From assembly GCA_027262695.1 (NCBI GenBank), contig GCA_027262695.1_4722.1: a stretch of 64,000 nucleotides of DNA; one strand, given 5' to 3'. Position numbers and translations under genes: made by a program. The notes under the pieces were generated by a model. The model was given only the letters and a program-made list of their open reading frames with translations, made no database searches and had not been told where the DNA came from. This document shows, in pieces, positions 15,852 to 44,075 of this stretch. This DNA comes from a phage. Position 1 is the first letter of the stretch, and the number at the start of each line of letters is the position of its first letter.

Positions 15852-15875
15852 CCTCCATGACTGTTATCATGGAGG
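15852..15875. promoter_or_regulatory. inverted repeat CCTCCATGA-n6-TCATGGAGG in divergent promoter region
   Basis: Perfect 9-bp arms between minus gene start (15783) and plus gene start (15918); followed by GGTAATATAG. Confidence 0.35.
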
Positions 15876-15917
15876 TAATATAGTCCTGATATTTTTTTCA
15901 ATACGGAGAATAGAATA

Positions 15918-16532
15918 ATGAGCGAATACGGTGTTGTCCCCGTAGATGATGAACCGCAAGAGGCACCCGATAAATTCGAGGTCCGTCTCGATGAAACTCG
16001 TAACATCCGTCAACGATTTATTCAGCGTCTTGAAATGCTGTTAGATAGCGAATTCAAGGAATTTGAGCATAATCCCGGTGCGGATAATAAAGCCATCGTT
16101 GACGTAGAAAACGTCGACCGAATCGGGAAACTATTGCTGAAATCGTTGGGTGATAATGATAAAGTCGACTTAACGCTGAAACGTATTAGTGCTGACCAGG
16201 CCATGAACGACAGCGCATTGAAAACAGCGCAGGCCCTAACCGAAACCATGCTGCGCCGCTTAGGTCAGATGGATCAACATCCTCTCGCAGCAGGGGCTGT
16301 TTATGATGGCGAAGTCGTGCAACCGGTTACACCGGAAGAGCGCGATCGTCGACTTGGTTTTGCGTCGTTGGAAGAATTCGACAGCAAAGAGTTTTCACCG
16401 GGTATTCTCATCCAGGGACGTGTTGAAGAAACCAGCGATGCTTTTTACGCTAGAATGGCTCAACTGACGGCGTCGGTTCGTGAAGAGGTGTCTCAGCAGA
16501 TGACTGCTGAGGACGCACGCGAGGGGGAATAA
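15918..16532 (+). CDS. hypothetical acidic protein
   Basis: 204-aa ORF; AT-rich upstream region with GGAG. Confidence 0.55.
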   Translation: MSEYGVVPVDDEPQEAPDKFEVRLDETRNIRQRFIQRLEMLLDSEFKEFEHNPGADNKAIVDVENVDRIGKLLLKSLGDNDKVDLTLKRISADQAMNDSALKTAQALTETMLRRLGQMDQHPLAAGAVYDGEVVQPVTPEERDRRLGFASLEEFDSKEFSPGILIQGRVEETSDAFYARMAQLTASVREEVSQQMTAEDAREGE

Positions 16533-17229
16533 AATAACTGAACCATTTTATTCCAAAGAACCGCATGAACATCACGGGTGCGTTAGAAAGTTCAATCGCT
16601 TCGTAAAGTTGATCGTAAGCCAGATCGGAGTCAGGAATGGTTTCGCTGATCCGTCTGGCTACCACCAATACGTTACAAATCGGATTATCTTCCAACAGCA
16701 TTTGATTCGGGAGATGCCAACGTTTGAAATCGTAAAAGAACATCGCGTTATACGTTTTACGGATTTCTGCGGGATGCATCGTCGCCGGATGACGGTAGAT
16801 AATCTCGACGATATCTTGCGCACCGAGATACTGTTGAATACCCTCTTTTAACGCAACAGCTGCATCACCGACAAACTCAAACGGGTATGTGTTGACATGA
16901 ACCGAAAAATCCGGCGATGCGATACCGGTTAATCGATCCTTCATGTAATCCGCAACCACATAACACAACCGCCACATTAACTCCGTAGGAATGCATTTAT
17001 CGAGAATGGTTTCGTCAATATTTGCTAACGCGTTCTTAAACTCCTCGTAGGTGTAGTTTACTCCCGCCTGTTTCTCAGGTTCCAGGTTATAGGGCCTGTA
17101 ATGCCATTTCTTTCCCCACTTCCTGATCGCTTCTGGATCCAACGTTGTCGCTACTGCCATCTCAATGTCGAGCAGCGCTTCGAGTTCGACATAAACCGTA
17201 ACATACGCTGCGCTTTCAATCATCATCAC
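16450..17229 (-). CDS. hypothetical protein
   Basis: 259-aa ORF; 3' end overlaps convergent gene 15918..16532 by 83 nt; 5' end overlaps upstream gene by 4 nt. Confidence 0.5.
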   Translation of the reverse strand: MMMIESAAYVTVYVELEALLDIEMAVATTLDPEAIRKWGKKWHYRPYNLEPEKQAGVNYTYEEFKNALANIDETILDKCIPTELMWRLCYVVADYMKDRLTGIASPDFSVHVNTYPFEFVGDAAVALKEGIQQYLGAQDIVEIIYRHPATMHPAEIRKTYNAMFFYDFKRWHLPNQMLLEDNPICNVLVVARRISETIPDSDLAYDQLYEAIELSNAPVMFMRFFGIKWFSYFIPPRVRPQQSSAETPLHEPTPSVEPF

Positions 17230-17927
17230 TCTCCAGTATTACCCGTTAGCATCTGCGCGTCAGGCGACGTTGCCATTTTCTTCTCGTACTCTTTGGTTTG
17301 TTTGAAGACCAACTCACCGATTTCTTCCAGTTCTTCAACGGTGACGGTATGCAAATAGAGTAGCGGAATAATCCAGGTGTTCGCATTAAGCATGTCGCGG
17401 ATATCATCAACGGATGGGAGTTCGGTAAAGAACTGTTCATCAACTGCGAATAAATCCCGTGCGATGCCGTCAACGAGTTTGTGATTGCTTTCATGGATCC
17501 ATGCGAAACTTTCAGCAAGATGTTCCACGAGCATTTTAATATCATCGTCCGTTGAGAACACCGTACGACGAACATGCGTTGTAAGATCCATCGTGAATCC
17601 CATCAGCGAAGGGGTATCCTCAGAACGGAGTTCGCGCCACAAACGAAGCATGTTTTCAGGGATAAACAAATCATGGATAAAGGTGACACTGAACTTCGTC
17701 ACCCAATCTCGAATCGTCGCGCCTTTCGAATACTGTTGCGGCGGGGAATACAAATACACCCAGCGTTTTGTATACGCGATGACTTCCTTTCGCATCATCG
17801 CATCTAAAACAAGCACATAACGATCGGAAGCAAGTTCTTCCAATAAAAGCTCGAACGCCGTATCGCTTTCTGGAGAGAACGATCGTTTGATCTCTGCAAT
17901 ACGTCGTGATAACGAACTACGTAGCAT
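17226..17927 (-). CDS. hypothetical protein
   Basis: 233-aa ORF in operon. Confidence 0.55.
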   Translation of the reverse strand: MLRSSLSRRIAEIKRSFSPESDTAFELLLEELASDRYVLVLDAMMRKEVIAYTKRWVYLYSPPQQYSKGATIRDWVTKFSVTFIHDLFIPENMLRLWRELRSEDTPSLMGFTMDLTTHVRRTVFSTDDDIKMLVEHLAESFAWIHESNHKLVDGIARDLFAVDEQFFTELPSVDDIRDMLNANTWIIPLLYLHTVTVEELEEIGELVFKQTKEYEKKMATSPDAQMLTGNTGE

Positions 17928-17929
17928 GA

Positions 17930-18604
17930 TTAACCCTCGTCGAGATTATTCTGGAGATGCATTGCGGTGAGAATAACGCCAACTGCTGAAACCGATTTTG
18001 CTTTACTGTCTTCCGGAAGCTGTTCCAGACTTACCGTACCGGTTTCTAACAACATGCGGTTCATCGCGTTGAACTTCTTATCGTCACCACCACGCGCCTG
18101 CATCAACTCTCGGTTTACGTTCGGCATCGACCGTCCTAACGTCGCCTGCATTTCTGGCTGGCTCCACGTTGAGCCTTTACTGCCACCCGTCGGCTGGTTG
18201 GTCAACTGGTCTTTGGTGTTGTTGTTTTTCGGGATCGATATTTTAGCACTCAACGTTTCGGCTTGTCGGCGGTTTGGAATCAGGTACAATCTGGTTGGGC
18301 GGTCACGAAGCACCAATTGCCCTGTTTTCTGGTCGGTGAGATAAATGCGCTGGAAGAAGGGGAAACCGTATTTCTTACCAACTTCCAACGCACGTTTTAT
18401 CGTCACCTCGTTTTTGTTCATGTTGGGTACCCAGATGGGTAGAATCTCTTTCTTATCCCGACATAAACGCATATAGGCATCAAACGTCTCATCATCGATT
18501 TCAGCAAAACGTTTTTTGTAAATAGCGTAAGTCGGGCTAGATTCACCCACCAGGTCTTTGATATACCCAAGAATGAATTTTTCTGCTGCAGCGCGGTTGG
18601 ACAT
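17930..18604 (-). CDS. hypothetical protein
   Basis: 224-aa ORF in operon. Confidence 0.55.
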   Translation of the reverse strand: MSNRAAAEKFILGYIKDLVGESSPTYAIYKKRFAEIDDETFDAYMRLCRDKKEILPIWVPNMNKNEVTIKRALEVGKKYGFPFFQRIYLTDQKTGQLVLRDRPTRLYLIPNRRQAETLSAKISIPKNNNTKDQLTNQPTGGSKGSTWSQPEMQATLGRSMPNVNRELMQARGGDDKKFNAMNRMLLETGTVSLEQLPEDSKAKSVSAVGVILTAMHLQNNLDEG

Positions 18605-18613
18605 AAACGTCTC

Positions 18614-18955
18614 CTATTGTCGTGTCTGTTGCGGAAATACCCGAAACACCTGGACAATGATGTTCTTGTCCTCGCGGTTGGCGATGTCGATCATGTGTTT
18701 TGTTCCAGGACTTTTGAAATCCCAGAACGCAATTAGATGCGTAATGACATCACCCATCCACTCATTGCGTCTGAATCCAGCACCTTTACGATAAGGACCA
18801 TCCCAATCGGCAGGAAACGTGGTGTATTTAAACCCGTAATCCTTCGCGTAGCGGCGCACATGCAAATCAGCACCTGAATGCGCACCGCCAGCAATGAGAT
18901 GAACTTTGTCGTGAGGAAGGTTGTGTAACATCTGGTTCATACGCTTTTCGAACAA
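18614..18955 (-). CDS. DUF2493-like (SLOG/DprA-like Rossmann-fold) protein
   Basis: Motifs HLIAGGAHSGAD, FPADWD, KGAGFRRNEWM, AFWDFKSPGTKHMIDIA match the pattern I recall for DUF2493 proteins. Confidence 0.5.
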   Translation of the reverse strand: MFEKRMNQMLHNLPHDKVHLIAGGAHSGADLHVRRYAKDYGFKYTTFPADWDGPYRKGAGFRRNEWMGDVITHLIAFWDFKSPGTKHMIDIANREDKNIIVQVFRVFPQQTRQ

Positions 18956-19008
18956 GGGATAATCATCCCAGTAGCGTGATCCCGATACCCCTACACGATA
19001 GGGTTCGC

Positions 19009-19329
19009 TTATCTTCCACCGCGCAATGACTTTACGTTGCGTGCAATAAACGGTGCAACGTAGTCGCGGAAATTATGGATCCATCCTTTAATGGGTTGGT
19101 TGTCGAGCAAACATTCTCGTACTGAGAATGTGCTGACTTCTAATACGCCAAACTGCAATCGCCAATAACGGTTAATTTCAGCTTGGGTATGTTCTAATGT
19201 CATGTACTCAGGAACACGAGCCAGCAGGTCGTGTTTAAATTGCTCAGCAATCGCTGGTTGATGTGACGCAATTGTCTGCGTGATAACATCAATCAGTTCA
19301 TGCGCGTGCTTGATAGCAGGTGCTGTCAT
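19009..19329 (-). CDS. hypothetical protein
   Basis: 106-aa ORF in operon. Confidence 0.5.
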   Translation of the reverse strand: MTAPAIKHAHELIDVITQTIASHQPAIAEQFKHDLLARVPEYMTLEHTQAEINRYWRLQFGVLEVSTFSVRECLLDNQPIKGWIHNFRDYVAPFIARNVKSLRGGR

Positions 19330-19341
19330 TTATTTAGCCTT

Positions 19342-20832
19342 TTATTTTTTACTCGGACGATTCAGCGCAGGCACCGGATTTTTCGGTTGCTTTGTTTTTT
19401 CATCCATCCAGTACGGGAAGTATTCACCTGTACGCATGCGCAGTAAGTCCATGGTGGAAAGGAACGGAAGCGGATTTGGGTCGTCCAGATACGTCCAATA
19501 ACCACGTGTGTTTAACAGTACATCCCAGTCGAAACCTTTTGCTTTAAGATCGTCGTACAGTTCCTGTGGGGTGCAATAGAGCTGTGGGTTCTCGTAAACT
19601 TCTTGACGCCAGAGATTATGCATCTGGCACAACTCCGAGGTAATCTCCAGAGCGCGTTGCAGATACTCATCTTCTTCACAGAGAGAACGAATGGTTGTAC
19701 GCTGTAGTGCAACATCCGGATAAATATCCAAATACACCGTAGAAGCACCCTCAGCAGGTTTACCACCGGATGCATGCATACCCCAACCACGCATCCATTC
19801 TTTATCGCGTAGGTAATGGTATTCTGTTAACGACGGTTTAACGCCTTCGCTCTGACTGACGACAATCGGAAACGGTAAACCTGTCGGTCCGTTTTTAGCA
19901 CGCATGTTGAAAACCTGAATCAACTGCAGATCGGTATCACCAATAAGGTTATCACCAGGTCCACGAGGATACAACACACGTTTATCGGCGTTCTGAAGAA
20001 TCGTCAGTTTATCGATTTTCCAGAGGTTGTTAGTATAAAACGTAAAACGTTCAGGGACGTTCTTAAACTTCTCGTCACCTTTAAACCCTTTCAGTTTTCG
20101 TACCGGTTGCTGGCCTGGCATACCGCCAACGTTGACACCATCACCAAGGTGGGCCGTCATGGTGATATAAATGCCTGCTGACGCGGTGAGTACCGGCATC
20201 TGGGATAAAATCTGGCTTTTTGCTGCTGCTGAACGCATGGCTTCAGCATTTAGCTTTGCACCACCTGCGGTTTCTTTATCGAACAATGCATCAACAGCAT
20301 CGATTGGTAATCCAGAGAAACTGTCAATGAGGACAACGGTTGGTAACCACCAGGTGTAGTTCTCGCCGTGTTTGTTAATAAATGGAACGGCTTTGCGTTG
20401 TGACTTGTCTTTAACTTTGTCGTCACGGAATTTCTTGATTGCGTCGAACCAGATGTTACCACTCATCTGAACAGCGTCGGTGATAAACACACGTTCTTCT
20501 TCGAACAGGTCAACACCCGCGATATTAGACATGTTCATCGCAAGCGTTAAGATACGTGTTGTCGTTAACGACATTTCTGTGTCGTAAACGCTACTATTGC
20601 TGTTCGCGTAACGATCGATAACACGTAACAAGCGAAACATTATGAACGTGGTTTTGTTCATGTTGCCGCGAGCGCCTGCGCCCTCAACAAGCATCATACC
20701 GCCGTTACAAATGCTTTCACCGTGTTTACCGACGTAGTACCGACCACCAGATGTGGGAATATCCATTAAGCAACCAATGTTGAGATTAAAACGCATCTCT
20801 TCACCGGGAGAAAGGTACTTATTAAGATTCAT
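19342..20832 (-). CDS. RecA-superfamily ATPase (UvsX/RecA-like recombinase or DnaB-like helicase core)
   Basis: P-loop-like GAGARGNMNKTTF near N-terminus; TVVLIDSFSGL and AEAMRSAAAKSQILSQMPVLTASAG resemble RecA/UvsX Walker B and downstream region. Confidence 0.5.
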   Translation of the reverse strand: MNLNKYLSPGEEMRFNLNIGCLMDIPTSGGRYYVGKHGESICNGGMMLVEGAGARGNMNKTTFIMFRLLRVIDRYANSNSSVYDTEMSLTTTRILTLAMNMSNIAGVDLFEEERVFITDAVQMSGNIWFDAIKKFRDDKVKDKSQRKAVPFINKHGENYTWWLPTVVLIDSFSGLPIDAVDALFDKETAGGAKLNAEAMRSAAAKSQILSQMPVLTASAGIYITMTAHLGDGVNVGGMPGQQPVRKLKGFKGDEKFKNVPERFTFYTNNLWKIDKLTILQNADKRVLYPRGPGDNLIGDTDLQLIQVFNMRAKNGPTGLPFPIVVSQSEGVKPSLTEYHYLRDKEWMRGWGMHASGGKPAEGASTVYLDIYPDVALQRTTIRSLCEEDEYLQRALEITSELCQMHNLWRQEVYENPQLYCTPQELYDDLKAKGFDWDVLLNTRGYWTYLDDPNPLPFLSTMDLLRMRTGEYFPYWMDEKTKQPKNPVPALNRPSKK

Positions 20833-20930
20833 TGGGTAAAAACTCCTTCGATTCTTCGACTAATTCTTAGTGTTCAGAGAATAACTATTTTTAGTTAAGA
20901 CTGACAACCGCTATTTCCACGAGGACAATC

Positions 20931-21773
20931 ATGCATAAATTTACCATTCCTGAAGACCCGATTACACTGCAGACCCTTTGGGATTCACATCGTGCTCTAT
21001 CAATGGAAGGCTTTGCACAAGACTTCGCTTCACTTACTGCAGTAACGAATCTTCGTAGTATGTTTACTAACGGTAAGAAGTTCGTTACCGATTGGCTTAA
21101 AAAACGTGATGTGACGGTTTATCCTAAAGTCTCCGATGACCTCGATACCATCTTTAGCAACAACGCTTACAGCGATCTCATTGGGTATCGTGCTTTTATT
21201 CCGAATGGTTTAAATGCGCCGATGTCAGATTATGTTGTTGCTTTAACCCAGAGCCTGGATAGCGTAATTGGTACCATCTTGCCCGATTTGGATAAGTTGA
21301 CCGTAACGTGCGCTAAAGCCGTCAACGACGTTAACTTCCGTCGTAGTAGTGGTATGGCTCAAACACTACCTAAAAACGACCCAGAGAACGTTTTAGAGAC
21401 GTTACGTGCGATGTTCAAACGTGGGACGGTAACACAGACCACTGTAGGTCGTGCATATAAGAACGAAGACGATATCCGTCAGATCGGAAAAGATCTGGAT
21501 GTTTCCCGTACCCGTGCGCTCGACGTTAATCCTAAAGACGTGAAGAAAGCAATCGAACGTTTCATGGAGGTGGCTGACCGCTTAACCGAAATCCTGGTTC
21601 AAGATTACAATGAGGGTGCGGTGAGCAACGCAATGATTCGTGATATTAGCGACGCTATCTACCAAACAGCCAAGCAGGCTGAACTGTATGCGTTTCTCGT
21701 GAACGCTTTGGCTGAAGCGATCATCGCATATAACGACACATGGGACGCCGTTAAAAAGAACGCGAAAAAATAA
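20931..21773 (+). CDS. hypothetical protein
   Basis: 280-aa ORF bounded by divergent promoter region and terminator hairpin. Confidence 0.55.
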   Translation: MHKFTIPEDPITLQTLWDSHRALSMEGFAQDFASLTAVTNLRSMFTNGKKFVTDWLKKRDVTVYPKVSDDLDTIFSNNAYSDLIGYRAFIPNGLNAPMSDYVVALTQSLDSVIGTILPDLDKLTVTCAKAVNDVNFRRSSGMAQTLPKNDPENVLETLRAMFKRGTVTQTTVGRAYKNEDDIRQIGKDLDVSRTRALDVNPKDVKKAIERFMEVADRLTEILVQDYNEGAVSNAMIRDISDAIYQTAKQAELYAFLVNALAEAIIAYNDTWDAVKKNAKK

Positions 21774-26521: not shown

Positions 26522-27223
26522 TTAGGATGCGGATAATCTAGCGTACTTTTGTCGAATATGGTTCTTACGGCGAACTTCGTCATCCTCGTCGCGCCATTCG
26601 AGGTAAGCTACGAATCGCCGTAACTGCGCTGCAGTCATTGTTGCTGACAGATCTTCTATTTCTAAAACAACATAGTGAACTTCGCCGACACCATCGCAGT
26701 CAGTATAACGGAATACCAAAAGATCCTTATCATATTCCGTGATAATAACCTTGAATCGTTTCTCGAACAAATAAAACAGTTCCGATTCGATAATCATCGG
26801 GATAACACAATTATCGTCACGTTCAATGATTTTCATCATCACACGTAACGCACGAAGCGCGTGATGGGCGAACGAACCATTAAATCGTTGATTCATTGCT
26901 TGTCCCACATCAACGATCTTTGTTCCTGGCCAGGGACGGATTACTGATTTCGGTGGTGTAAGACGGCAGCGGTACGCTTGTATAAACAACAGAATATCGG
27001 CGACATTAGGAAATTCTTCCTGGTCTTTGTACAGCTTACGGATAATATCCGGGATCGTAGTCAACAAATATTTCCTATCGCCTCCTACTTTCTCGAGATT
27101 AGCGATATGCCCTTCTACCACTGGCTGGTAAACGAAATTATACCAGTGGTGGTATTTTGCAACGTGTTGGTATTTCGGGATGAAATTAAGAACAGCGTTC
27201 ACTGCGCGTTTTAATGGGTTCAT
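26522..27223 (-). CDS. hypothetical protein
   Basis: 233-aa ORF. Confidence 0.55.
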   Translation of the reverse strand: MNPLKRAVNAVLNFIPKYQHVAKYHHWYNFVYQPVVEGHIANLEKVGGDRKYLLTTIPDIIRKLYKDQEEFPNVADILLFIQAYRCRLTPPKSVIRPWPGTKIVDVGQAMNQRFNGSFAHHALRALRVMMKIIERDDNCVIPMIIESELFYLFEKRFKVIITEYDKDLLVFRYTDCDGVGEVHYVVLEIEDLSATMTAAQLRRFVAYLEWRDEDDEVRRKNHIRQKYARLSAS

Positions 27224-27237: not shown

Positions 27238-27672
27238 TTATGTTTTAATATGCACATCGTCAATCCCCTCGGTAATCCAGCCGATGGGAAGGACAATCGT
27301 TGTTATCGTGTTATGGGTGTAAGGATTAAGAAAATGGAAATAGTAATTTGTGTTAGATTGTTCGATGCGTAGGTCGAGCTGTGCGTCTTCAGGTAACCGT
27401 AACCAGGCACCGTACAGTTCATTAAACTTACGCTGAATTTTACCTGGGTTCATTGGAACCCCACGACCACGTTGATGTAGCTGACGTAATGATTCAATCA
27501 AACACTCAGAGATACCCGTTGTCGTTCCGTTATCGCTTGTATCGACAACGATGAACTCTCGTGACCCACGACCAAGATAAAAACCAGCAACAAAAGCTGC
27601 AGCAACAAAAAATATCGTACCGATACCAATATACCAATAGTAAGTATCCATAACGGCCTCACTTATACCCAA
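27238..27672 (-). CDS. small membrane protein (N-terminal TM)
   Basis: TM YYWYIGIGTIFFVAAAFVAGFYLG near N-terminus. Confidence 0.5.
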   Translation of the reverse strand: MGISEAVMDTYYWYIGIGTIFFVAAAFVAGFYLGRGSREFIVVDTSDNGTTTGISECLIESLRQLHQRGRGVPMNPGKIQRKFNELYGAWLRLPEDAQLDLRIEQSNTNYYFHFLNPYTHNTITTIVLPIGWITEGIDDVHIKT

Positions 27673-28238
27673 TAGTCGGCAAGCGGTTTCACCTTATTAA
27701 CGGGTAATTGTACTTTACCGATATTCTCTACATCTGCATCCGCGTAGAGAACAATTTTATCATTGTCTCTTTCCCAACGAATAATAAATCGACCAGGAAG
27801 AAGATTACCCTGTTCAAGAGACGCAGTAACCTGCTGCGTTAACACCGACAACCAAGCAGGCATCAGTGTTGCAATATCTAAGTCATTTGACCATTCAGCA
27901 CGTTGCTCCACAGGGCGTAACATCCGTTGGATGGTGCGTTGAACCGTCGCAGTGATATAGCCTTTATCTTCATCACTGATCGGATCCGGACGAGACACAA
28001 AACGTTCAGTAGGCTTGTGGGTAATATGTTCATGCAATTCGATGAGTGGTGTTGTCATAGTACTCGCTCCGTCAGAATGTAATTGGGTAACCCGCAGGGT
28101 TGTCTGCATGGTATTCAGAAGCGCAAAAGCGCCATAAACAACAACGACACTAAGTACAACCAAAACAGAAATCATTAACGTATATTGCATTGATATCTCC
28201 TCTTCATACGCATCTTGAAGATTAGTTAAAATCAACAA
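27663..28238 (-). CDS. small membrane protein (N-terminal TM)
   Basis: TM LMISVLVVLSVVVVYGAFALL near N-terminus; GAGGAGAT upstream. Confidence 0.5.
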   Translation of the reverse strand: MLILTNLQDAYEEEISMQYTLMISVLVVLSVVVVYGAFALLNTMQTTLRVTQLHSDGASTMTTPLIELHEHITHKPTERFVSRPDPISDEDKGYITATVQRTIQRMLRPVEQRAEWSNDLDIATLMPAWLSVLTQQVTASLEQGNLLPGRFIIRWERDNDKIVLYADADVENIGKVQLPVNKVKPLADYWV

Positions 28239-28291: not shown

Positions 28292-28948
28292 TTAGCTTGC
28301 AGCTTCTTCATTTGTTTCAGGTTTGCTTCCCCCTAACAAACCGTCGAACAGACCCGTATGTTTCAGGTAGAAGAGAGCGATAGCGCCCATTGCTGCTGCG
28401 CTCGTCGCCGTTAATGCAACCCCTGCACGATACTGCCATTTACGGTCAGGCTTTTGATCAAGCGCCATACGACGCATGTATTCAGCCTCTGCTTCATTCC
28501 GATGAATTTCGGATTCGGCCAAGCGGGCTAAGGTATCGCGGTCAAGGTTATCATAACGTGCGTTCATGGTGGTTTCCTCTTGTTTGGAAGTTGATTGCTT
28601 GGTAGATTCTTGGTCAACAGTCGTTTCGGTTGGTTCAAACGGCTGGTTGTTCATTTTCTGATCTTTATTGGACATGATAGGCTCCTTCGATTTTTGAGAC
28701 GAAATTGATTTAAACCATCGTGGATGGCGGTATTCGGTTTTACATGTGCAGTTAAGTTTCTCGTGCAGGAAAGCGTAAAAACGTTTTGCGCCTACACGTA
28801 AGGCTTTCAGCATTACCCATCCACGAGCACTCAAACGGTGTAGCTGTTGCGGTATGTCGAGTTTCCTAGCCAAGCGAAAGTATCTTTCAATCACTTCGAT
28901 AGGAAACCATTGTTGTTCCACATCGGTGAGACTGAAAGTCTTATCCAT
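28292..28948 (-). CDS. hypothetical protein with C-terminal TM segment
   Basis: 218-aa ORF; hydrophobic GVALTATSAAAMGAIALFYL near C-terminus. Confidence 0.5.
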   Translation of the reverse strand: MDKTFSLTDVEQQWFPIEVIERYFRLARKLDIPQQLHRLSARGWVMLKALRVGAKRFYAFLHEKLNCTCKTEYRHPRWFKSISSQKSKEPIMSNKDQKMNNQPFEPTETTVDQESTKQSTSKQEETTMNARYDNLDRDTLARLAESEIHRNEAEAEYMRRMALDQKPDRKWQYRAGVALTATSAAAMGAIALFYLKHTGLFDGLLGGSKPETNEEAAS

Positions 28949-28979
28949 GATTGAAATCTCGCTGGCTTACTTCACTTAA

Positions 28980-28996
28980 GTAATATAGCCGTGAAA
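28980..28996 (+). promoter_or_regulatory. conserved 17-mer GTAATATAGCCGTGAAA (candidate promoter element)
   Basis: Identical 17-mer recurs at 43715-43731; the 9-nt core GTAATATAG recurs at 15875-15883. Confidence 0.35.
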
Positions 28997-29098
28997 AATG
29001 TTGGATTAAGTTAAATACCGCAACCGCAGCTAATTTTATAGGCTTTTAGCCTAAACCAATCATCTTCGGAATCATCATCTTTGAAACAGGAATCTATC

Positions 29099-29920
29099 AT
29101 GGAAAAAGTATTTGTTTGTAAGTTGTTTACCAACGGCAATAGCCAACCAATGTATCTGACCGATCCTGTTCTAGGTAATCGGAACAGTACCGTATTCAAA
29201 GAGGCTTTCGAATACGCTAAAAATAAAGCCGTGAGAACACTGACGTCTGATGACTGTATCGACGGTATCACGTGGGCAGAGTTAATCGGTGATGCCGTTC
29301 GACACTTCGTTCGGGATGCGAGAAAACGGGAAATCTGTCTCACGACTATTGTTGTGCGTGAAAACGCAGAAATTTTATCAAACGTTTTGGTTGATTTTAA
29401 TGACGTTTGCGTGTTTAATCCAGAGAACACGTTTGAACAATACCTTACTGCCCTGAACAACCAGCTCGGTAAAGATATTCATCCCGAATTCGCCAAGTTA
29501 ACGTATCAAGTGCTTTTTAACGACGTCGATCCAAACACAAAGATCAACACCAGCTTATCGCCCCTGGTAAAGAAATACGGATCGGTTCTTGCTACGGCAA
29601 CACCCACCACCGATGGCGGTTATGATATCGAATTGGATGGTCCATTAAAAGAACAAGAACCTACTGGGATTCGGGCGGTACATCACAACCTCGTCGTTAA
29701 ATCTGATGGATGCGATGAACATTACGCTATGATAAACGATGAAAACAATTACCGTTTAAGTCAAGCGATTGGTGTTCTACGCTATACCGAACCCACTGTT
29801 GTAGACGATTATACATCGACAACAACACACACCACGTGTTTCATTTTCATCTATCCCAATGAAAGTGTATACATTACCGACTGCTATGGCAATACCGTAG
29901 ATAGCTTACGTCGTTATTAA
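29099..29920 (+). CDS. hypothetical protein
   Basis: ORF track 29081..29920 (TTG); ATG 29099 preferred. Confidence 0.5.
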   Translation: MEKVFVCKLFTNGNSQPMYLTDPVLGNRNSTVFKEAFEYAKNKAVRTLTSDDCIDGITWAELIGDAVRHFVRDARKREICLTTIVVRENAEILSNVLVDFNDVCVFNPENTFEQYLTALNNQLGKDIHPEFAKLTYQVLFNDVDPNTKINTSLSPLVKKYGSVLATATPTTDGGYDIELDGPLKEQEPTGIRAVHHNLVVKSDGCDEHYAMINDENNYRLSQAIGVLRYTEPTVVDDYTSTTTHTTCFIFIYPNESVYITDCYGNTVDSLRRY

Positions 29921-38089: not shown

Positions 38090-38193
38090 TTCTTTCCTCG
38101 GTTACAATGAGTTCAATGTATGGCGTAAACGTCACAGAACGACGTATAACAGTTTGTTTTGATTTCTAAGGTGTTTCCCTATCTAAGAGTGAA

Positions 38194-38556
38194 TTAAAGC
38201 GTTCTGAAGAGTTCTGTGGCGTTCTCAGCACGTAAACATGCTTCGTTCAACAACTCCGCTAACAACTTCGATCTAACTTCAACGAATGTCCTGGTACGAT
38301 GCTCCCAGTCTAAACGGATGGTGTAAGTATCATCCATGTTTCTGTGGTCAACAACAGATGTTGAACAACGTGTTTCTTGTTTATTCACAGCACTCCAGAC
38401 ATCACGGATAATCGTCATGCCTTTCTTGGTGCACGTAAACGTCAAGATACAACGATTATTCGCTGCTTCTTCACAAACGTGAATAAATTCGCTTCGTAGC
38501 GATGAGGTCTTGGTCAATCGATCGATAGCAAGCGATAACCCAATACGTTGTTGCAT
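38194..38556 (-). CDS. small hypothetical protein (tandem family, possible third member)
   Basis: 120 aa; ILTFTCTKKGMTIIRDVW resembles the core of the two upstream genes. Confidence 0.45.
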   Translation of the reverse strand: MQQRIGLSLAIDRLTKTSSLRSEFIHVCEEAANNRCILTFTCTKKGMTIIRDVWSAVNKQETRCSTSVVDHRNMDDTYTIRLDWEHRTRTFVEVRSKLLAELLNEACLRAENATELFRTL

Positions 38557-38557
38557 A

Positions 38558-38971
38558 TCAAATTCCTTCTTTCAAAATCTCATTAAGGCCGTCTGCAACC
38601 GCGTCCAAATGGGCATCCATATCCGTTACGGTGTCAGCGGTAACTGTCCAGACGTGCTGTATTAATGTCTCACCATTCGTACATTTTACCATTTCCATCG
38701 CCAACTTTGTTTGTCCTGACGATGGTGAGATCTCATTGCTCCGCCAAAACGCAGCCTCGAGTAATGTTTTACCTAACGCTGTACACACAAAAGTAAATTC
38801 TACTTGACCAATACCTACCACCGAAGCGGATAACGGTTGGATATGTTCGCGCAGCTTATCATCTTCACGTAGGAGCAGCAGTGTACGATGTAAGTGTGTA
38901 CGGTGGGTAACAATAGCGTCGTAATGACCGATGCGTACATCGGCTACTGATTCAGGCCAGTTAATTTTCAT
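38558..38971 (-). CDS. small hypothetical protein (tandem paralog)
   Basis: 137 aa; VEFTFVCTALGKTLLEAAFW aligns with LGFVFSQTGKDVLENIFW of 38987..39430. Confidence 0.5.
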   Translation of the reverse strand: MKINWPESVADVRIGHYDAIVTHRTHLHRTLLLLREDDKLREHIQPLSASVVGIGQVEFTFVCTALGKTLLEAAFWRSNEISPSSGQTKLAMEMVKCTNGETLIQHVWTVTADTVTDMDAHLDAVADGLNEILKEGI

Positions 38972-38986
38972 GTTCGATTCCTCGTA

Positions 38987-39430
38987 TTAACACTGTGTTC
39001 CATTCGATAAGCGGGTGGTATCAAAACGATCCAGTTGGTGTACAATGCTATTAGCAACACGATGCAAATAGTGTATTTTGTCCATTCGTGAAATCGCAGA
39101 AATCGTCCAGCAAGCCTCTGACGTCCAATAGGTGCCGTCTTCACTAAGGCTAACGTTATAAACTAACTTCGTCATCACATTTCTCGCCTTATGCTCAGCA
39201 GACCAGAATATGTTTTCTAACACATCCTTCCCCGTTTGTGAAAACACGAACCCAAGCTTCACGTCGAGGTCGGATGCTTCAAGATTAACGAAGTGAAGAT
39301 GATTCTCCAAAGGCGCAAAAGAGGCTAAACGTTCCAGCGCGTTTTGCAGCGTGGGATGATCGAGCTTTTCGAGATCATCCACAGGTTGTTCAGGTACAAT
39401 CGCGATCGATTTACAGAATTTAATTTCCAT
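38987..39430 (-). CDS. small hypothetical protein (tandem paralog)
   Basis: 147 aa; shared core motif with 38558..38971. Confidence 0.5.
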   Translation of the reverse strand: MEIKFCKSIAIVPEQPVDDLEKLDHPTLQNALERLASFAPLENHLHFVNLEASDLDVKLGFVFSQTGKDVLENIFWSAEHKARNVMTKLVYNVSLSEDGTYWTSEACWTISAISRMDKIHYLHRVANSIVHQLDRFDTTRLSNGTQC

Positions 39431-39459
39431 GGTAGGTTCCTCTTGATAGATGGTAGTAA

Positions 39460-39479
39460 CGGGGATACCGCGGTATCCC
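39460..39479 (-). terminator. intra-operon hairpin GGGGATACCGCGGTATCCCC
   Basis: Perfect 20-bp palindrome between two minus genes. Confidence 0.4.
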
Positions 39480-39487
39480 CTAAGTCT

Positions 39488-39958
39488 TTATAACACGCCC
39501 CAAGCCATATTGGGTACAGGCTCGTTACGTTCGATGTAATACATCAAGCGTTCTTTAAGTTTGGTTAACGCCTCAGCAACGATGTTCTCCATGGCAATCA
39601 CCTTTCCAATGTAATCCATGGTATCCTGCCACGTAAACCATTCGACGGTATTGACGATGTAAAGGGTTTCATCGTCGTCGGTCATGACCTTGGCATTTTC
39701 ACGATGATCGCGGGTCGCGTATAACGGTGTTTTTAGATTCGCTCTGATACGTACCCAGAGCTTCTCCAGGAAATCGCTCGGTTGACTATCTGTCGTGATG
39801 ATAAGTTCACTCCGTACTGAACGCTCTCCACGCTTTTCAATAACAAGTAAACCATCGTAAGTGATGTTCATCAAGTTACGAAGGTCATCATTGCTATTCC
39901 AGTCTTTTACAACAGCAGGAAGTTGGCTATTGTACTCTTCAGGTAATCTCTTAAGCAT
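39488..39958 (-). CDS. hypothetical protein
   Basis: 156-aa ORF. Confidence 0.5.
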   Translation of the reverse strand: MLKRLPEEYNSQLPAVVKDWNSNDDLRNLMNITYDGLLVIEKRGERSVRSELIITTDSQPSDFLEKLWVRIRANLKTPLYATRDHRENAKVMTDDDETLYIVNTVEWFTWQDTMDYIGKVIAMENIVAEALTKLKERLMYYIERNEPVPNMAWGVL

Positions 39959-40403
39959 CGGTTTCTGCTCCTATATCACGTTTGAGTTCGGCGACCAGTT
40001 TGTCGTAATGGTCTTTTATCACATTCGCCATAACGAATTGCGCTTTTCTCACTAGCTGCTCATTGGCATCACTGAATGTAAAATACTCTCGCACTTCAAC
40101 CGGATGTGATACGCCACCGATATCGTAGGCTTTATTCGATGTGCGTTGAGCGATCACTGGGAGCGGTTTCGCGGCGTTCAGCGCAGTACAGATTTCCGTA
40201 ACGAGTTCTTGAATTTGGCTTTTCCCTTCGATGATAACGCTGCAACGATAAACATCCACCTCGTTAAGTTGTTCAACAACATCCGCCTTGATTTTGAATT
40301 GACCTACAAGCGCGCTTACTAAAGTGCGGTGCCAATTGTTCACCACTCCAACCAGCAATGGATGATTCTCAAGATCTCTTCTGTTCATTTCTGAGCTCCT
40401 CAA
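39951..40403 (-). CDS. hypothetical protein
   Basis: 150-aa ORF overlapping downstream gene by 8 nt. Confidence 0.5.
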   Translation of the reverse strand: MRSSEMNRRDLENHPLLVGVVNNWHRTLVSALVGQFKIKADVVEQLNEVDVYRCSVIIEGKSQIQELVTEICTALNAAKPLPVIAQRTSNKAYDIGGVSHPVEVREYFTFSDANEQLVRKAQFVMANVIKDHYDKLVAELKRDIGAETDA

Positions 40404-40425
40404 TCGCTCTATAACAAACTTTTAG

Positions 40426-40450
40426 AGGAAGGGAAACATATTCCCTTCCT
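40426..40450 (-). terminator. hairpin GGAAGGGAA-acata-TTCCCTTCC
   Basis: 9-bp stem between 40468..40743 and 39951..40403. Confidence 0.4.
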
Positions 40451-40467
40451 TGAGTTAGTTTATTGCG

Positions 40468-40743
40468 TTATACGTCTTTTCTGTGCGCGTAGAACGCCTT
40501 CGTTCCGTTGTTGATCGCCTCAACCACATCCGGGGTTAACACAACGGCGATATCGCTTCGAGATGACGGTGCGTAATACCCTTCACCGTTCTCGGTAATC
40601 AGGCGATAACGGACTAAGCCTATGTTCGGTTCAACGCGTACCACTCTTTCGAGTTTGTACTTGATGATCTTCGTCAGGCCGATAGTCTCTGATGCGTAGA
40701 TGGCTTTATAAACTTTGTTCTTTGCTGTCGTTTTCATCAACAT
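40468..40743 (-). CDS. small hypothetical protein interleaved in paralog cluster
   Basis: ORF track 40468..40812; internal ATG 40743 chosen to limit overlap with paralog 1 (still 38 nt). Confidence 0.4.
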   Translation of the reverse strand: MLMKTTAKNKVYKAIYASETIGLTKIIKYKLERVVRVEPNIGLVRYRLITENGEGYYAPSSRSDIAVVLTPDVVEAINNGTKAFYAHRKDV

Positions 40744-41599
40744 GGTTTCTGTTTTCCTTGGTTTGTTGTGGTCCCAGGTCGGAGATATCCCAACGGATAT
40801 AACCAACATCACGGATTCGCTCGGCTGTTTCTTCGGATTGTGGATTACGACTGATAACCGGTAGCCATTCCCCTTCTCGGGTTATCTTAACTTCGGTGAT
40901 CTGTAAGCTCATGTTCCAACGAACGTCATAAACCAGCGCGTAACCAAGAGGATGAACAAGCCCATCTTGGTTATACATCTTCAAAAGACCTCTTACATCT
41001 TCGCTACGAAGTGATTTCATGGCTGGACGTACGCGTTGAAGTCTCTTTGTGATATCGTATCCCAACTTAATATCCTTCCAACCCGTCATGACGTAAGGAA
41101 CAACGTTGCGGCGACGGAGTTGATGGTTGTGAGTGGTTTCTTCGGCGGTAAGATGTACCCAACCGAGATCGCTGTACGCCACGAACCGCGCTCCTTCTCC
41201 ATCGAGCACTGTGTGCTCATCTAACGCTGCTGCAACACCATGGCCTGCGTAATACGACGGAAGAACGTTCAGCATTTTAATACGGCTTTCTTGACCGGTA
41301 TGGTCAGGGTCGATATGCGCGTAGTAATAATTACGGCTTACCGGACGACCTTCCGCCATACATCCACGGAAGACAGGGTCCTGCATTCCAAGCGGATGGT
41401 AATACGCGAGCTGTTGCTCGTCACCTTCCCCGATGACCAACAAACGATCTTCACGACTTGGTGTGCTAGGATCTTTCACCGTGATGTAGGTAACAATCAC
41501 TTTCAGATTGTCTAAAATGTCCTGTGGAAGTTTCTCTAAATCCCGTGCGTCGTAAATACGATTAACAACAACGTTTGCAATGTGTTTTGGTAAGCTCAT
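40706..41599 (-). CDS. member 1 of triplicated ~270-aa paralog family (unknown function)
   Basis: Shared motifs LAYYHPLGMQ, SDLGWVHL, HPLGYALVYDVRWN, GYIRWDISDL; unique C-terminal extension. Confidence 0.6.
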   Translation of the reverse strand: MSLPKHIANVVVNRIYDARDLEKLPQDILDNLKVIVTYITVKDPSTPSREDRLLVIGEGDEQQLAYYHPLGMQDPVFRGCMAEGRPVSRNYYYAHIDPDHTGQESRIKMLNVLPSYYAGHGVAAALDEHTVLDGEGARFVAYSDLGWVHLTAEETTHNHQLRRRNVVPYVMTGWKDIKLGYDITKRLQRVRPAMKSLRSEDVRGLLKMYNQDGLVHPLGYALVYDVRWNMSLQITEVKITREGEWLPVISRNPQSEETAERIRDVGYIRWDISDLGPQQTKENRNHVDENDSKEQSL

Positions 41600-41644
41600 T
41601 TTAGATCTCTCTTTGTTATCGGTAAAATAAATAACGGCATAAAT

Positions 41645-41660
41645 GGGACATAACTGTCCC
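41645..41660 (-). terminator. hairpin GGGACA-taac-TGTCCC followed on minus strand by TTTATGCCGTTATTTATTTT
   Basis: Between paralog 2 stop and paralog 1 start; motif at 41633-41642. Confidence 0.45.
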
Positions 41661-41679
41661 CGTGTTAAATATCAACTGT

Positions 41680-42522
41680 TCACGCTTTCAAGTCTGAAAT
41701 ATCCCAACGTACGTAACCTGTACGCTCAATGTCGTCAACCAGTCGCTCGGTTTGATTTTCAACGCCAACGACGGGCACCCAATTTAAACGCCAGCGTCCA
41801 CCGACATTAACCTCAACACGCTGCAGATCTTCATTCCAACAAACCCCATTCGGTCTCAAAAAGCCCATCGGATGGATGTAGTCCTCATCGTAATCTTTCA
41901 ATAGCGCGAGAATATCGCTTCGGCTATAAGTCTTCACGCTTGCTAGATGTACGCTTTGTAGCTTATCACGCAGACCCCAACCGTACTCACTATCACGCCA
42001 TTCAGGCATGACAACCGGCAGTACATTCCGATGACGGATGTATTTTGCCGCTTCAGCAATATCAGCTGGGAGATGTATCCAACCTAAATCGCTGTTAGCG
42101 ACAAAATCAGGACTATCCATTTCATGGATGTAACGATCGTAAAGCGTAGCAGCGAGTCCTTCAGCAAGCACGTTTGTTGGAAGGAGGCAGTTGGCGCTTA
42201 TCTTGAAATCGAATACATCGGCATCAGGATCCACGTATGCGTAAAACCCGCGCGCAAAAGCACCGCCATGCTCTTTGAAGTAGTATTGGAACACAGCGTT
42301 TTGCATTCCGATGGGGTGGTAGTAAGCCAACACACGTTGTTCGCCGTCCGTGATTTCAATGAGCCGATCTTTCGGCTTCGGCCAGGTGATCTTCTCAACA
42401 TCGCAAACGCTGACGATCTTTCGTAGATTCACCTTGATATGTTCCGGGAGATGCCCGATTTCATTTTCATGATAAACACGGGTGATGACGTGATGAATAA
42501 CAGATTGTGGTTTAGCTGTCAT
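41680..42522 (-). CDS. member 2 of triplicated paralog family
   Basis: LAYYHPIGMQ, SDLGWIHL, HPMGFLRPNGVCWN, GYVRWDISDL. Confidence 0.6.
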   Translation of the reverse strand: MTAKPQSVIHHVITRVYHENEIGHLPEHIKVNLRKIVSVCDVEKITWPKPKDRLIEITDGEQRVLAYYHPIGMQNAVFQYYFKEHGGAFARGFYAYVDPDADVFDFKISANCLLPTNVLAEGLAATLYDRYIHEMDSPDFVANSDLGWIHLPADIAEAAKYIRHRNVLPVVMPEWRDSEYGWGLRDKLQSVHLASVKTYSRSDILALLKDYDEDYIHPMGFLRPNGVCWNEDLQRVEVNVGGRWRLNWVPVVGVENQTERLVDDIERTGYVRWDISDLKA

Positions 42523-42554
42523 TTGACGTCTCCTTTTCGTTTGTTGGTGATGGT

Positions 42555-42854
42555 TTAGGGTTTAGGTTCCGTTTTGTATTGTGCGAGTAATGCGTTGATC
42601 TGCTCCCGTTGTTCTTTTAAGCATGTGGGAAGCTGGTCTTCCCGTACCGTTCCGATTTCCAACGTGATGTACCAACGTTGTTCGGAAGCCTGCCATTGAA
42701 AACTGCTCTGTAACCGAAGGATGTTGGGATCGCGTACCTTGCTTGCGCTGTAGCGATCGAACCAATCCAGATAAGCGGCTTTTCCTTCCTCGTCGGCAAC
42801 GTAACGCTGCACGCTGTTCTTGCCTTTGTTCTCGTATCCCGTGATGCGGATCAT
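42555..42854 (-). CDS. small hypothetical protein interleaved in paralog cluster
   Basis: ORF track 42555..42908; ATG 42854 overlaps stop of paralog 3 in ATGA arrangement. Confidence 0.45.
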   Translation of the reverse strand: MIRITGYENKGKNSVQRYVADEEGKAAYLDWFDRYSASKVRDPNILRLQSSFQWQASEQRWYITLEIGTVREDQLPTCLKEQREQINALLAQYKTEPKP

Positions 42855-43627
42855 GCGAACGTTTCTCCTGTAACGTGTTGCGGATAGCGTAGCATGGTAA
42901 CATCCCATTGTACGAATCCCTGCTGTTGGAGTTGTTGCATAACCGCTTCAACGTCTTGTCCTGGATGCGCAACCGGCAACCAACGTGTATCCAGCACCTT
43001 CGCTTCAAGGCGGGCTTTGCGCTTGTTCCAACGTACCTCGCTGATCCATGCGAAGCCAAGCGGATGCACCACCTGCGGGTAATGCACGCGCAGCAGGTTC
43101 TTCATCCGGCGAAGGATTGCAAGCCTGGCGTCAAGCGCGTATGGTTTCACCTGGTTAAGCTTGCGGGTGTAATACGTTCCCACGGTTTGGTTCGCCCAAC
43201 CAGGAAGCGCATGATGGGACCCAGCCTGCAATGTATTGTCCCCGTTCGTCTTCAACCAACCGTATTGCCCTGCCGCACGTCCTTTCTCATGTTCAACTTG
43301 TACCAGCTGATCGATGAACGAAGCATCAACGATACCGTGATCCACCTCATCCAACGCATAGCGCACCACCAACCCGCTCGCGCTCATCCGTGCGGGATGC
43401 TGGCTCCGATGCGCGTACCAAACCCTATTAACATGCAGCCGAGAAGGATACGTGTGTGCGCCACGCCAAAACACTTTTCCGAGAACACGTTCTCCACAGT
43501 ACACCATCACCCCTTTGTGATCGATTAGGTAATCCAACACCTTCATGCATTCCGCTTTGATGCTATCCGGTAATGCTAAGTATTCCTCTTCGGTGAACAC
43601 GGTATCAAAAATGATTTCATCGCTCAT
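42851..43627 (-). CDS. member 3 of triplicated paralog family (most divergent)
   Basis: HPLGFAWISEVRWN and GFVQWDVTML align with members 1 and 2. Confidence 0.55.
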   Translation of the reverse strand: MSDEIIFDTVFTEEEYLALPDSIKAECMKVLDYLIDHKGVMVYCGERVLGKVFWRGAHTYPSRLHVNRVWYAHRSQHPARMSASGLVVRYALDEVDHGIVDASFIDQLVQVEHEKGRAAGQYGWLKTNGDNTLQAGSHHALPGWANQTVGTYYTRKLNQVKPYALDARLAILRRMKNLLRVHYPQVVHPLGFAWISEVRWNKRKARLEAKVLDTRWLPVAHPGQDVEAVMQQLQQQGFVQWDVTMLRYPQHVTGETFA

Positions 43628-43639
43628 GGATAAAGTTCC

Positions 43640-44075
43640 TTGTTTTCACGTTGTTTGATTAACGTATTGATTTCTGATGATGATAACATCGATATGTTTG
43701 CTGTTATCAAGAAGGTAATATAGCCGTGAAAGGATTTGTATTACAGAAAGGATATTTGTTTTTAAGAAGGGACGATGGTTATCAGGAAGGAGGTTATCGG
43801 TAGGTGTAGGAGAGGGGATTTCAAGGAAGGTTTAAGAGGATAGTTATGTTGTTTAGTTGAGAGTTTGCTAAAATAGCTTTATCGTTATCTTAGTTTATCT
43901 GTGTATTCGTTAGGTATCTTGATTTATCTTCTTAATGATCTTTTCAAAAGTGTTATCATGGTTATCTTAGGTTATGTCTTAATTGTTTTATCTTGGTATG
44001 TTTAAGTTGTTTTAAGTTATCTGTTTATCTATCTTGTTATCTTGTTTAAGTTGTTAATGGCTTATCTTCAAAACA
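43640..44075. repeat. AT-rich non-coding region with purine-rich (A/G)GAAGG repeats (about 43700-43850) and at least 8 TATCTT iterons (about 43880-44070)
   Basis: No credible ORF; copies such as GTTATCTTAG, GGTATCTTGA, TTTATCTTCT, GGTTATCTTAGG, TTTATCTTGG, GCTTATCTTC; TGTTTAAGTTGTT twice. Confidence 0.6.

Follow-up and report, generated by a model that had tools for sequence, protein, structure and literature searches.

The window analyzed here is a 64,000-nt stretch of phage DNA. Two parts of it were compared with Escherichia phage Goslar and showed identities of 94.7% and 83.4%. Goslar is a nucleus-forming jumbo phage (Chimalliviridae), and its annotation includes RNAP beta-subunit genes and a nuclear-shell gene. 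Three gene-free gaps of the window, at 15784-15917, 28949-29098 and 43628-44584, hold copies C, A and B, respectively, of a repeated sequence. The minus-strand genes behind them, and a polymerase gene discussed below, were assigned from the ORF list and the Goslar annotation:

28292-28948, minus strand: first gene behind copy A, 218 aa, Goslar gp004 ortholog
27663-28238, 27238-27672 and 26522-27223, minus strand: gp003, gp002 and gp001 orthologs, after the gp004 ortholog
42851-43627, minus strand: first gene behind copy B, 258 aa, Goslar gp021 ortholog
15268-15783, minus strand: first gene behind copy C, 171 aa, Goslar gp200 ortholog
14759-15316 and 13609-14727, minus strand: gp201 and gp202 orthologs, after the gp200 ortholog
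17930-18604, minus strand: virion RNA polymerase (vRNAP) subunit gene, Goslar gp196 ortholog (223 of 224 residues identical, 99%)

The gp021 ortholog leads a series of small, uncharacterized minus-strand genes (gp020-gp014 orthologs) that reaches about 37700. No Pfam family was found for the gp004, gp021 and gp200 orthologs, and Pfam searches of 14 window proteins (10 flanking the three motif copies and 4 elsewhere) gave nothing useful.

Three copies of a 40-nt element

An earlier note on this DNA reported an identical 17-mer at two distant sites. We confirmed exact copies of GTAATATAGCCGTGAAA on the plus strand at 28980-28996 and 43715-43731, the latter correctly placed where an AT-rich non-coding island begins. 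The note also described a related third site on the basis of the short sequence GGTAATATAG. By itself this short sequence is not significant (4 found versus 2.9 expected); what stands is a third copy of the 17-mer, GTAATATAGTCCTGATA, at 15875-15891 on the plus strand, with 3 mismatches relative to GTAATATAGCCGTGAAA. The chance expectation for GTAATATAGCCGTGAAA with up to 3 mismatches is 0.10, and three matches occurred in none of 100 dinucleotide-preserving shuffles. In the minus-strand reading the 17-mer is TTTCACGGC-TATATTAC, and TATATTAC is present on that strand in all three copies.

Alignment limited the likeness among the three copies to approximately 40 nt, and a 40-nt profile was used to search for the family in Goslar and in the window. 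The three copies, which score between 42.1 and 48.1, are the only strong profile sites in the window, where the next best score is 24.9; shuffled Goslar sequence tops out at about 16. Given its score of 42.1, the third site is a full member of the family. All three copies are intergenic, and the share of the window not covered by ORFs is about 8.6%. Their layout is as follows, with start positions that are predictions:

28971-29010, minus strand: candidate promoter copy A, CTTAATCCAACATT-TTTCACGGC-TATATTAC-TTAAGTGAA; exact 17-mer, profile score 48.1
28980-28987, minus strand: core TATATTAC of copy A; predicted start G at 28973, 25-nt leader to the ATG at 28948
43706-43745, minus strand: candidate promoter copy B, TGTAATACAAATCC-TTTCACGGC-TATATTAC-CTTCTTGAT; exact 17-mer, profile score 43.3
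43715-43722, minus strand: core TATATTAC of copy B; predicted start G at 43708, 81-nt leader to the ATG at 43627
15866-15905, minus strand: candidate promoter copy C (A-run subtype), CGTATTGAAAAAAATA-TCAGGAC-TATATTAC-CTCCATGAT; 3-mismatch 17-mer, profile score 42.1
15875-15882, minus strand: core TATATTAC of copy C; predicted start G at 15868, 85-nt leader to the ATG at 15783

Each copy has a counterpart in Goslar. Copy A is identical at Goslar 2551-2590 and in two Goslar-like IMG/VR genomes, and the ortholog of copy C lies at Goslar 226679-226718. Between copy B and Goslar 15051-15090, a block of about 45 nt around the motif is kept, and both flanks are full of substitutions and indels. In IMG/VR, the exact 17-mer was detected in Goslar-like genomes only, plus one intragenic chance match; a scan with the 16-mer CAGGACTATATTACCT returned mostly chance matches in unrelated contigs, and only the Goslar-like genomes were used. 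A duplication or mobile-element repeat was rejected as an origin of the copies, whose flanks are unrelated.

Strand and position of the family in Goslar

The profile search yielded 12 strong sites in Goslar, in addition to the three in the window, all in one orientation. The Goslar scores are 40-49, against a shuffle maximum of about 16. Every Goslar site is on the minus strand, 31-211 nt upstream of a minus-strand start codon, and contains a TAYATTAC core. All 15 sites (12 in Goslar and 3 in the window) share an invariant T-G pair that occupies positions 6-7 past the core. According to the RefSeq annotation, which was used for this count as a greedy ORF caller had over-extended ORFs, 11 of the 12 Goslar sites are intergenic and the remaining one is within an annotated ORF of 62 aa. 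Intergenic placement was found for 11/12 sites in Goslar and 3/3 in the window, in gaps that account for about 8% of the sequence. One of the Goslar sites (172962-173001) is 72 nt upstream of chmA, with the nvRNAP beta' gene directly downstream of chmA; chmA itself is outside the window. Expression of Goslar chmA is seen at 5 min and in the early vesicle that contains vRNAP (bioRxiv 10.1101/2023.09.20.558163).

These rules bear on the direction of the putative promoters. The earlier note assigned the motif to the plus-strand genes at 29099 and 15918 and likened TAATAT to a -10 hexamer, which would make it a host sigma-70 promoter. TAATAT matches TATAAT at 4/6 positions, and at copy C a plus-strand ATGACT-16-TATAGT (9/12) overlaps the motif. 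However, this lone match fits the shuffle expectation (0.6 +/- 0.7), copies A and B have no -35 partner, and no sigma-70-type match uses the motif there. A sigma-70 consensus scan of both strands (-35/-10 boxes 16-18 nt apart, at least 9/12) detected no promoter common to the three sites: it returned nothing at copy A, matches that do not use the motif at copy B, and the chance-level plus-strand overlap at copy C. Moreover, conservation spans about 40 nt, including the would-be spacer. Copy B has no plus-strand gene closer than about 350 nt, and the annotation of Goslar lists none for the orthologous gap. All 12 Goslar copies are oriented alike with respect to a downstream minus-strand gene, whereas a divergent plus-strand neighbor is present only at some. 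We therefore give a host promoter for the plus-strand genes almost no credence. Since the 12 Goslar sites are all on the minus strand and the PhiKZ consensus described below aligns to the motif in the minus-strand reading only, genes 29099 and 15918 are not considered targets; the targets should instead be the minus-strand genes 28292-28948, 42851-43627 and 15268-15783.

Similarity to early promoters of PhiKZ and AR9

The published PhiKZ early-promoter consensus, a vRNAP target, is tatattaaaaaaaatttaagatgTATATTACaaatgtG (PMC12676376, Table S1), the core of which is identical to TATATTAC; a full-text literature search for TATATTAC returned only unrelated papers. In the 1-50 kb region of PhiKZ, TATATTAC occurs seven times on the gene strand and not once on the other, and all seven copies are 42-80 nt upstream of a gene, chmA among them. 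The chmA sites of the two phages are gaaaaaaatttgagattTATATTACtaaattGA in PhiKZ and gaaaaaaatttcagggtTATATTACctaggtGA in Goslar, with a predicted leader of 66 nt in both, and the primary start site of PhiKZ gp054 (chmA) has the early motif in dRNA-seq (PMC8244752). RAY and Eowyn have the same core followed by N5-TG upstream of chmA, so that the element precedes chmA in Goslar and in three other genera. With the 38-nt PhiKZ consensus as query, the best Goslar match was the chmA site (29/38) and the best window match on either strand was copy C (25/38). Copies A and B match at only 22/38 positions, which is level with chance matches, and were assigned to this class because of their core, T-G offset and Goslar family profile.

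Besides the identical 8-nt core, the Goslar-clade sites share with PhiKZ early promoters the T-G located 6-7 nt past the core, a TTTnA(G) block that precedes the core by about 10 nt, an A-rich run farther upstream, and an intergenic location tens of nt upstream of co-oriented genes. Several differences were also observed. Most Goslar-clade copies contain a clade-specific, G+C-containing TTTCACGRC block at -20, whereas PhiKZ has ATTTAAACAG-like A/T sequence there and its counterpart is limited to TTTnA. The Goslar clade also accepts C at core position 3 (TACATTAC), and its starts are predictions from sequence, unlike the mapped PhiKZ starts. In addition, sites are fewer in Goslar (12-14) than in PhiKZ (about 30; range about 28-32), although detection at 5 min extends to 175 of 249 Goslar genes; long operons would account for this, as would further early promoters that escaped the search.

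AR9 is a Bacillus jumbo phage with uracil in its DNA, and the upstream part of its early element is purely A/T; AR9 is only distantly related and is not known to form a phage nucleus. Its core nevertheless agrees with TATATTAC at 7/8 positions (TATATTAT), with equal spacing to a conserved G. The AR9 early consensus, AAATATATATTAT-(6N)-G+1, belongs to the vRNAP-dependent class, and starts in PhiKZ and phiR1-37 are conserved, 6 nt after the element (PMC5312081). A motif of such kind is present upstream of early operons in every RNAP-encoding jumbo phage, according to a review (PMC7598289). The element is of a known kind and involves no new principle.

These similarities support the suggestion of the earlier note that the copies represent a shared promoter element. 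The three copies are very probably minus-strand early-gene promoters of a Goslar-like nucleus-forming jumbo phage, with promoter function suggested by homology. On the minus strand (5' to 3'), the predicted element would have four blocks. The first, at about -30, would be either A/T-rich or TTAAY; TTTCACGRC would come next (about -20), and then the core TAYATTAC (about -14 to -7). The last would be YTNNRT followed by G-A, in which the G is the predicted first transcribed base. A multisubunit vRNAP, carried in the capsid and delivered together with the DNA, would bind the element in the first minutes after infection and then transcribe leftwards into the small-gene operons that start at 28948, 43627 and 15783. 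The motif is almost certainly read by an RNA polymerase that the virus injects. Goslar gp196 has been tagged as a vRNAP subunit and co-localized with injected Goslar DNA (Armbruster et al., bioRxiv 10.1101/2023.09.20.558163), and we propose the gp196-containing vRNAP as the enzyme in question.

A different polymerase could in principle act on the same strand. If TATATT were a sigma-70 -10 box, E. coli RNA polymerase would be borrowed for the first genes. This hexamer, part of an A/T-rich core near -10, matches TATAAT at 5/6 positions with the key A2 and T6 present, and one subtype has a TTAAT-like block 16-17 nt upstream of it. Both PhiKZ and AR9 have been demonstrated to be independent of host RNA polymerase, which is not documented for Goslar itself in the literature examined. 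However, the best minus-strand -35 candidates reach only 2-3/6, the consensus scan reports none, and the A-run subtype lacks any candidate. Conservation is equally strong in the hexamer, in TTTCACGRC, which would be the spacer, and in TGA at the +1 region, a pattern that is not sigma-70-like, and the homologous PhiKZ promoters work in the presence of rifampicin. In Goslar, vRNAP co-localizes with the injected DNA in the vesicle that releases early transcripts (bioRxiv 10.1101/2023.09.20.558163). Use of the host enzyme on the minus strand is therefore very unlikely, and the proposed reader, unlike that of a sigma-70 promoter, would be a sigma-less phage polymerase with split beta/beta' subunits.

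Predicted starts and inverted repeats

Start positions of the proposed early promoters were deduced from the AR9 and PhiKZ spacing, core-(6N)-G, which places each of them on the minus strand 7 nt left of the left edge of the motif. The predicted starts of copies A, B and C (28973, 43708 and 15868) correspond to Goslar 2553, 15053 and 226681, respectively. From the homology described above, we infer transcription at these sites and from these exact starts, early timing of the three operons and the identity of the polymerase.

Inverted repeats were observed near two of these predicted starts:

43681-43709, minus strand: inverted repeat at copy B, TGATAACA-(13 nt)-TGTTATCA; fold energy z = -2.1 versus shuffles; begins at -1 of the predicted start
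15852-15875, minus strand: inverted repeat at copy C, CCTCCATGA-(6 nt)-TCATGGAGG; z = -2.9; adjoins the core and spans the predicted start

Such repeats are present at 6 of the 12 Goslar sites. About half of the copies have one that begins between -7 and +1, often as G+1-ATAAC.../...GTTATC. One stem pair of the copy C repeat differs among genomes: the window has C-G, Goslar and one relative have T-A, and a second relative has T-G. In addition, 13 TTATC, which read GATAA on the promoter strand, form an oriented array just upstream of copy B.

The polymerase of coliphage N4 is single-subunit and uses as its promoter a DNA hairpin that precedes the start. The Goslar-clade element would resemble N4 vRNAP promoters as an early class served by a polymerase injected with the genome (PMC4496689). 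Unlike the N4 hairpins, the inverted repeats here vary, run from about the start site onwards and occur at only about half of the sites.

The repeats have implications for two other interpretations of the motif. One of them, also mentioned in the earlier note, is a binding site for a phage regulator, such as an activator or a repressor that turns early genes off, with the polymerase element located elsewhere. The long clade-specific TTTCACGRC exceeds PhiKZ conservation at that place, and at several sites an inverted repeat covers part of the predicted start region. However, the repeats vary in sequence from site to site and therefore do not represent one operator. Regulator binding lacks specific support because the conserved 40 nt are asymmetric, and a core and T-G offset common to phages whose other proteins are about 24% identical fit a conserved polymerase better. 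We regard a primarily regulatory site as very improbable, though an additional role of this type may exist.

In the other interpretation, transcription would start farther upstream, and the motif would be an RNA element within the 5' leaders of the minus-strand mRNAs. The chmA "TSS sequence" displayed by Armbruster et al. extends from 91 nt upstream of the ATG, a point 2 nt ahead of the 17-mer (bioRxiv 10.1101/2023.09.20.558163), and the stem at copy C, with a 5' arm that precedes the predicted start, varies in a manner compatible with RNA pairing (C-G, U-A and U-G). However, the legend gives the figure of 91 nt for chmA and the nvRNAP gene alike, and for the latter it equals the whole intergenic gap, so that it is most likely a display window rather than a start. 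The motif has no conserved pairing, as TCAC/GTGA is not kept at 43259, 226688 and other sites; conserved RNA structure inside the motif was rejected as a candidate on this ground, and Rfam showed none there. In AR9, mapping places the start 6 nt beyond the homologous core, as has also been reported for PhiKZ and phiR1-37 (PMC5312081). A leader element of this type is extremely unlikely, and we retain the early-promoter interpretation.

A further possibility, which we consider doubtful, is that Goslar-clade early promoters have a second layer, consisting of the TTTCACGRC block at -20 and the start-site inverted repeat, that has not been described for PhiKZ. The TTATC array might be part of the same system. 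If the repeat is real in RNA, early mRNAs would begin with a flush 5' stem-loop. With it, they might resist 5'-end-dependent decay or be tagged for export out of the early infection vesicle; another possible effect is promoter-proximal termination of the kind that yields 5'-UTR small RNAs in 201phi2-1.

The predicted sites outline where early transcription units are likely to lie in Goslar-like E. coli jumbo phages, with three units in the window and 12-14 in Goslar, and with start sites predicted at single-nucleotide resolution. The comparison shows that the putative promoter core, TATATTAC-(6N)-G, is kept across Pseudomonas, Erwinia, Klebsiella and Escherichia chimalliviruses, although their shell proteins are only about 24% identical. 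The uncharacterized genes located behind these predicted promoters are candidates for host take-over functions.

Motif copies in the window and their family in Goslar

The earlier note had described a repeated 17-mer with a related third site, and this was borne out by a scan of the window: GTAATATAGCCGTGAAA (reverse complement TTTCACGGCTATATTAC) occurred exactly at two sites, and one further site, the third one of that note, was gained at up to three mismatches. At this tolerance, 0.10 matches were expected by chance, and none of 100 dinucleotide-preserving shuffles reached three, while the 10-mer GGTAATATAG was not significant by itself judging by its match count in the window. All three copies were located in inter-ORF gaps:

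28980-28996, copy A, exact
43715-43731, copy B, exact
15875-15891, copy C, with mismatches

Duplication or a mobile element could be excluded as the origin of the copies because their flanks are unrelated.

Two stretches around the copies shared 94.7% and 83.4% identity with Escherichia phage vB_EcoM_Goslar (hereafter Goslar), their only match in the phage collection searched. Goslar is a nucleus-forming jumbo phage of 237 kb. Among its annotated products are a shell protein of the phage nucleus, the tubulin PhuZ and several split RNA polymerase subunits of the beta type. Two other window features also have Goslar counterparts:

2605-3037, minus strand, group I intron (Rfam RF00028, 58.4 bits) in the RNA polymerase subunit region, corresponding to the annotated Goslar intron 211817-212245
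4641-11363, plus strand, 2240-aa ORF orthologous to Goslar gp204 (annotated as tail fiber or lysozyme-domain protein), with only a sub-threshold Pfam match, Glyco_hydro_19, at residues 1941-1979

Copy A is uninformative on conservation, since it is nearly identical in Goslar together with its surroundings. At copy B, approximately 45 nt around the motif were kept, with many substitutions and indels in both flanks. In IMG/VR, the exact 17-mer was confined to Goslar and a pair of Goslar-like genomes, besides one match inside a gene of an unrelated contig, which is a chance occurrence.

The whole Goslar genome was scanned with TTTCACGGCTATATTAC, and a 40-nt profile was built from the related sites, of which the good ones were all on the minus strand. 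Twelve Goslar sites scored 40-49 (shuffled genomes, at most about 16), and two or three weaker ones were near 30. When applied to the window, the profile recovered exactly the same three sites (48.1, 43.3 and 42.1; next best, 24.9). The family is composed of four blocks:

Blocks of the motif family, minus-strand reading
about -30: TTAAY or A-run
about -20: TTTCACGRC
after TTTCACGRC: TAYATTAC
after TAYATTAC: YTNNRT-G-A

According to the RefSeq annotation, start codons lie 31-211 nt downstream of the Goslar sites, and the genes behind them are gp004, gp021, gp040, gp046, gp075, gp105, gp159, gp175, gp182, gp246, gp214 and gp200. Among these, gp246 encodes the nuclear shell protein ChmA, with a subunit gene of the non-virion RNA polymerase next in line. 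The gp046 site is the only one to overlap an annotated ORF (62 aa). Two weaker matches (score about 30) may be degenerate early promoters:

Goslar 151618-151657, minus strand, upstream of the RNA polymerase beta-subunit gene gp165
Goslar 187623-187662, minus strand, upstream of gp225

The copies in the window and Goslar fall into two subtypes, which may differ in strength or timing: TTAAY...TTTCACGRC, containing the 17-mer (gp004, gp021, gp182, gp105, gp159, gp075 and gp046 sites), and an A-run with TnnCAGG, nearer the PhiKZ consensus (chmA, gp200, gp214 and gp040 sites).

Comparison with early promoters of jumbo phages

According to a review, all RNAP-encoding jumbo phages have a bioinformatically detectable, highly conserved A/T-rich motif near -10 upstream of early operons, which, where tested, is the early promoter of the virion RNA polymerase (vRNAP) (PMC7598289). 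The AR9 early consensus is AAATATATATTAT-(6N)-G+1, and PhiKZ and phiR1-37 have a conserved start 6 nt past the element (PMC5312081); the PhiKZ consensus has been listed as a genetic part, tatattaaaaaaaatttaagatgTATATTACaaatgtG (PMC12676376, Table S1). The core TATATTAC, shared with our motif on the minus strand, occurred seven times on the gene strand of the first 50 kb of PhiKZ and never on the opposite strand, each copy 42-80 nt ahead of a gene. One of these genes is gp054 (chmA), for which differential RNA-seq placed a start site with the early motif (PMC8244752). The chmA sites of PhiKZ (gaaaaaaatttgagattTATATTACtaaattGA) and Goslar (gaaaaaaatttcagggtTATATTACctaggtGA) are strikingly similar, and a 66-nt leader is predicted in both. 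TATATTAC-N5-TG likewise precedes chmA in RAY and Eowyn; for PhiPA3, the sequence is TATATCAC. When the PhiKZ 38-mer was used as an independent query, its best match in the whole Goslar genome was the chmA site (29/38), and within the window it was copy C (25/38). At 22/38, copies A and B were level with chance matches, and for these two the assignment is based on their core, on the T-G offset and on the profile from Goslar.

The proposal of a shared promoter is upheld by recovery of the same sites with the Goslar profile and by likeness to PhiKZ and AR9 early promoters. However, its strand and plus-strand target genes were not supported, as the strong Goslar sites are all on the minus strand ahead of minus-strand genes. 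Nor was the reading of TAATAT as a sigma-70 -10 hexamer supported: scanning both strands revealed no sigma-70 promoter common to the three sites, and the would-be spacer and start region are conserved, contrary to such a promoter. A binding site for a phage regulator is less likely than a polymerase site, because the motif is asymmetric and is kept across phages whose proteins are only about 24% identical; an extra regulator role of the clade-specific TTTCACGRC block is still conceivable.

Predicted starts and inverted repeats

The best-supported reading is that the three copies are early promoters, which vRNAP injected with the DNA would read leftwards. Under the core-(6N)-G rule, minus-strand starts are predicted at 28973, 43708 and 15868, and thus leaders of 25, 81 and 85 nt, respectively. 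The window encodes a vRNAP subunit ortholog:

17930-18604, minus strand, 223/224 identical to Goslar gp196

Tagged gp196 was located with injected DNA (Armbruster et al., bioRxiv 10.1101/2023.09.20.558163).

Hairpins with z <= -2 were observed directly past the core at half of the 12 Goslar sites, compared with a rate of 7% in random windows (binomial p = 7.5e-5), and at two of the three window copies:

Goslar 15060, 49725, 86698, 113790, 160784 and 226688
window 43681-43709 and 15852-15875

Relative to the predicted early start, the 5' arm of these inverted repeats begins at a position from -7 to +1, and several open with G+1-ATAAC. In a relative, the ortholog of Goslar 113790 kept the stem with a different loop; at the gp200-type site, one stem pair varies among relatives (C-G, T-A or T-G). 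In 201phi2-1, termination shortly past start sites was reported to yield 5'-UTR small RNAs. The stem at copy C is the single hint that the motif itself might be a leader-RNA element, a possibility against which the start-site positions in AR9 and PhiKZ speak.

Next to copy B, we observed what looks like a putative iteron or protein-binding array:

43746-44100, inside the gene-free gap 43628-44584, 13 oriented TTATC within 355 nt, seven of which read GTTATC

It is the densest TTATC cluster of the window (36.6 versus 2.4 per kb), just as the orthologous stretch is the densest of the Goslar genome, and is flanked by copy B and a terminator-like hairpin of a gp022-like gene (44537-44566).

Early transcription in Goslar-like phages

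For the window copies, we infer transcription, its timing and the enzyme involved. In Goslar, expression of chmA and approximately 175 genes is seen as early as 5 min and from the vRNAP-containing early vesicle (bioRxiv 10.1101/2023.09.20.558163). A Pfam search assigned no family to the genes behind the three copies, and absence of known families is typical of jumbo-phage early genes (PMC5312081). Motifs of this kind are already known and the finding is not surprising; the motif helps annotation of early transcription units in Goslar-like phages.
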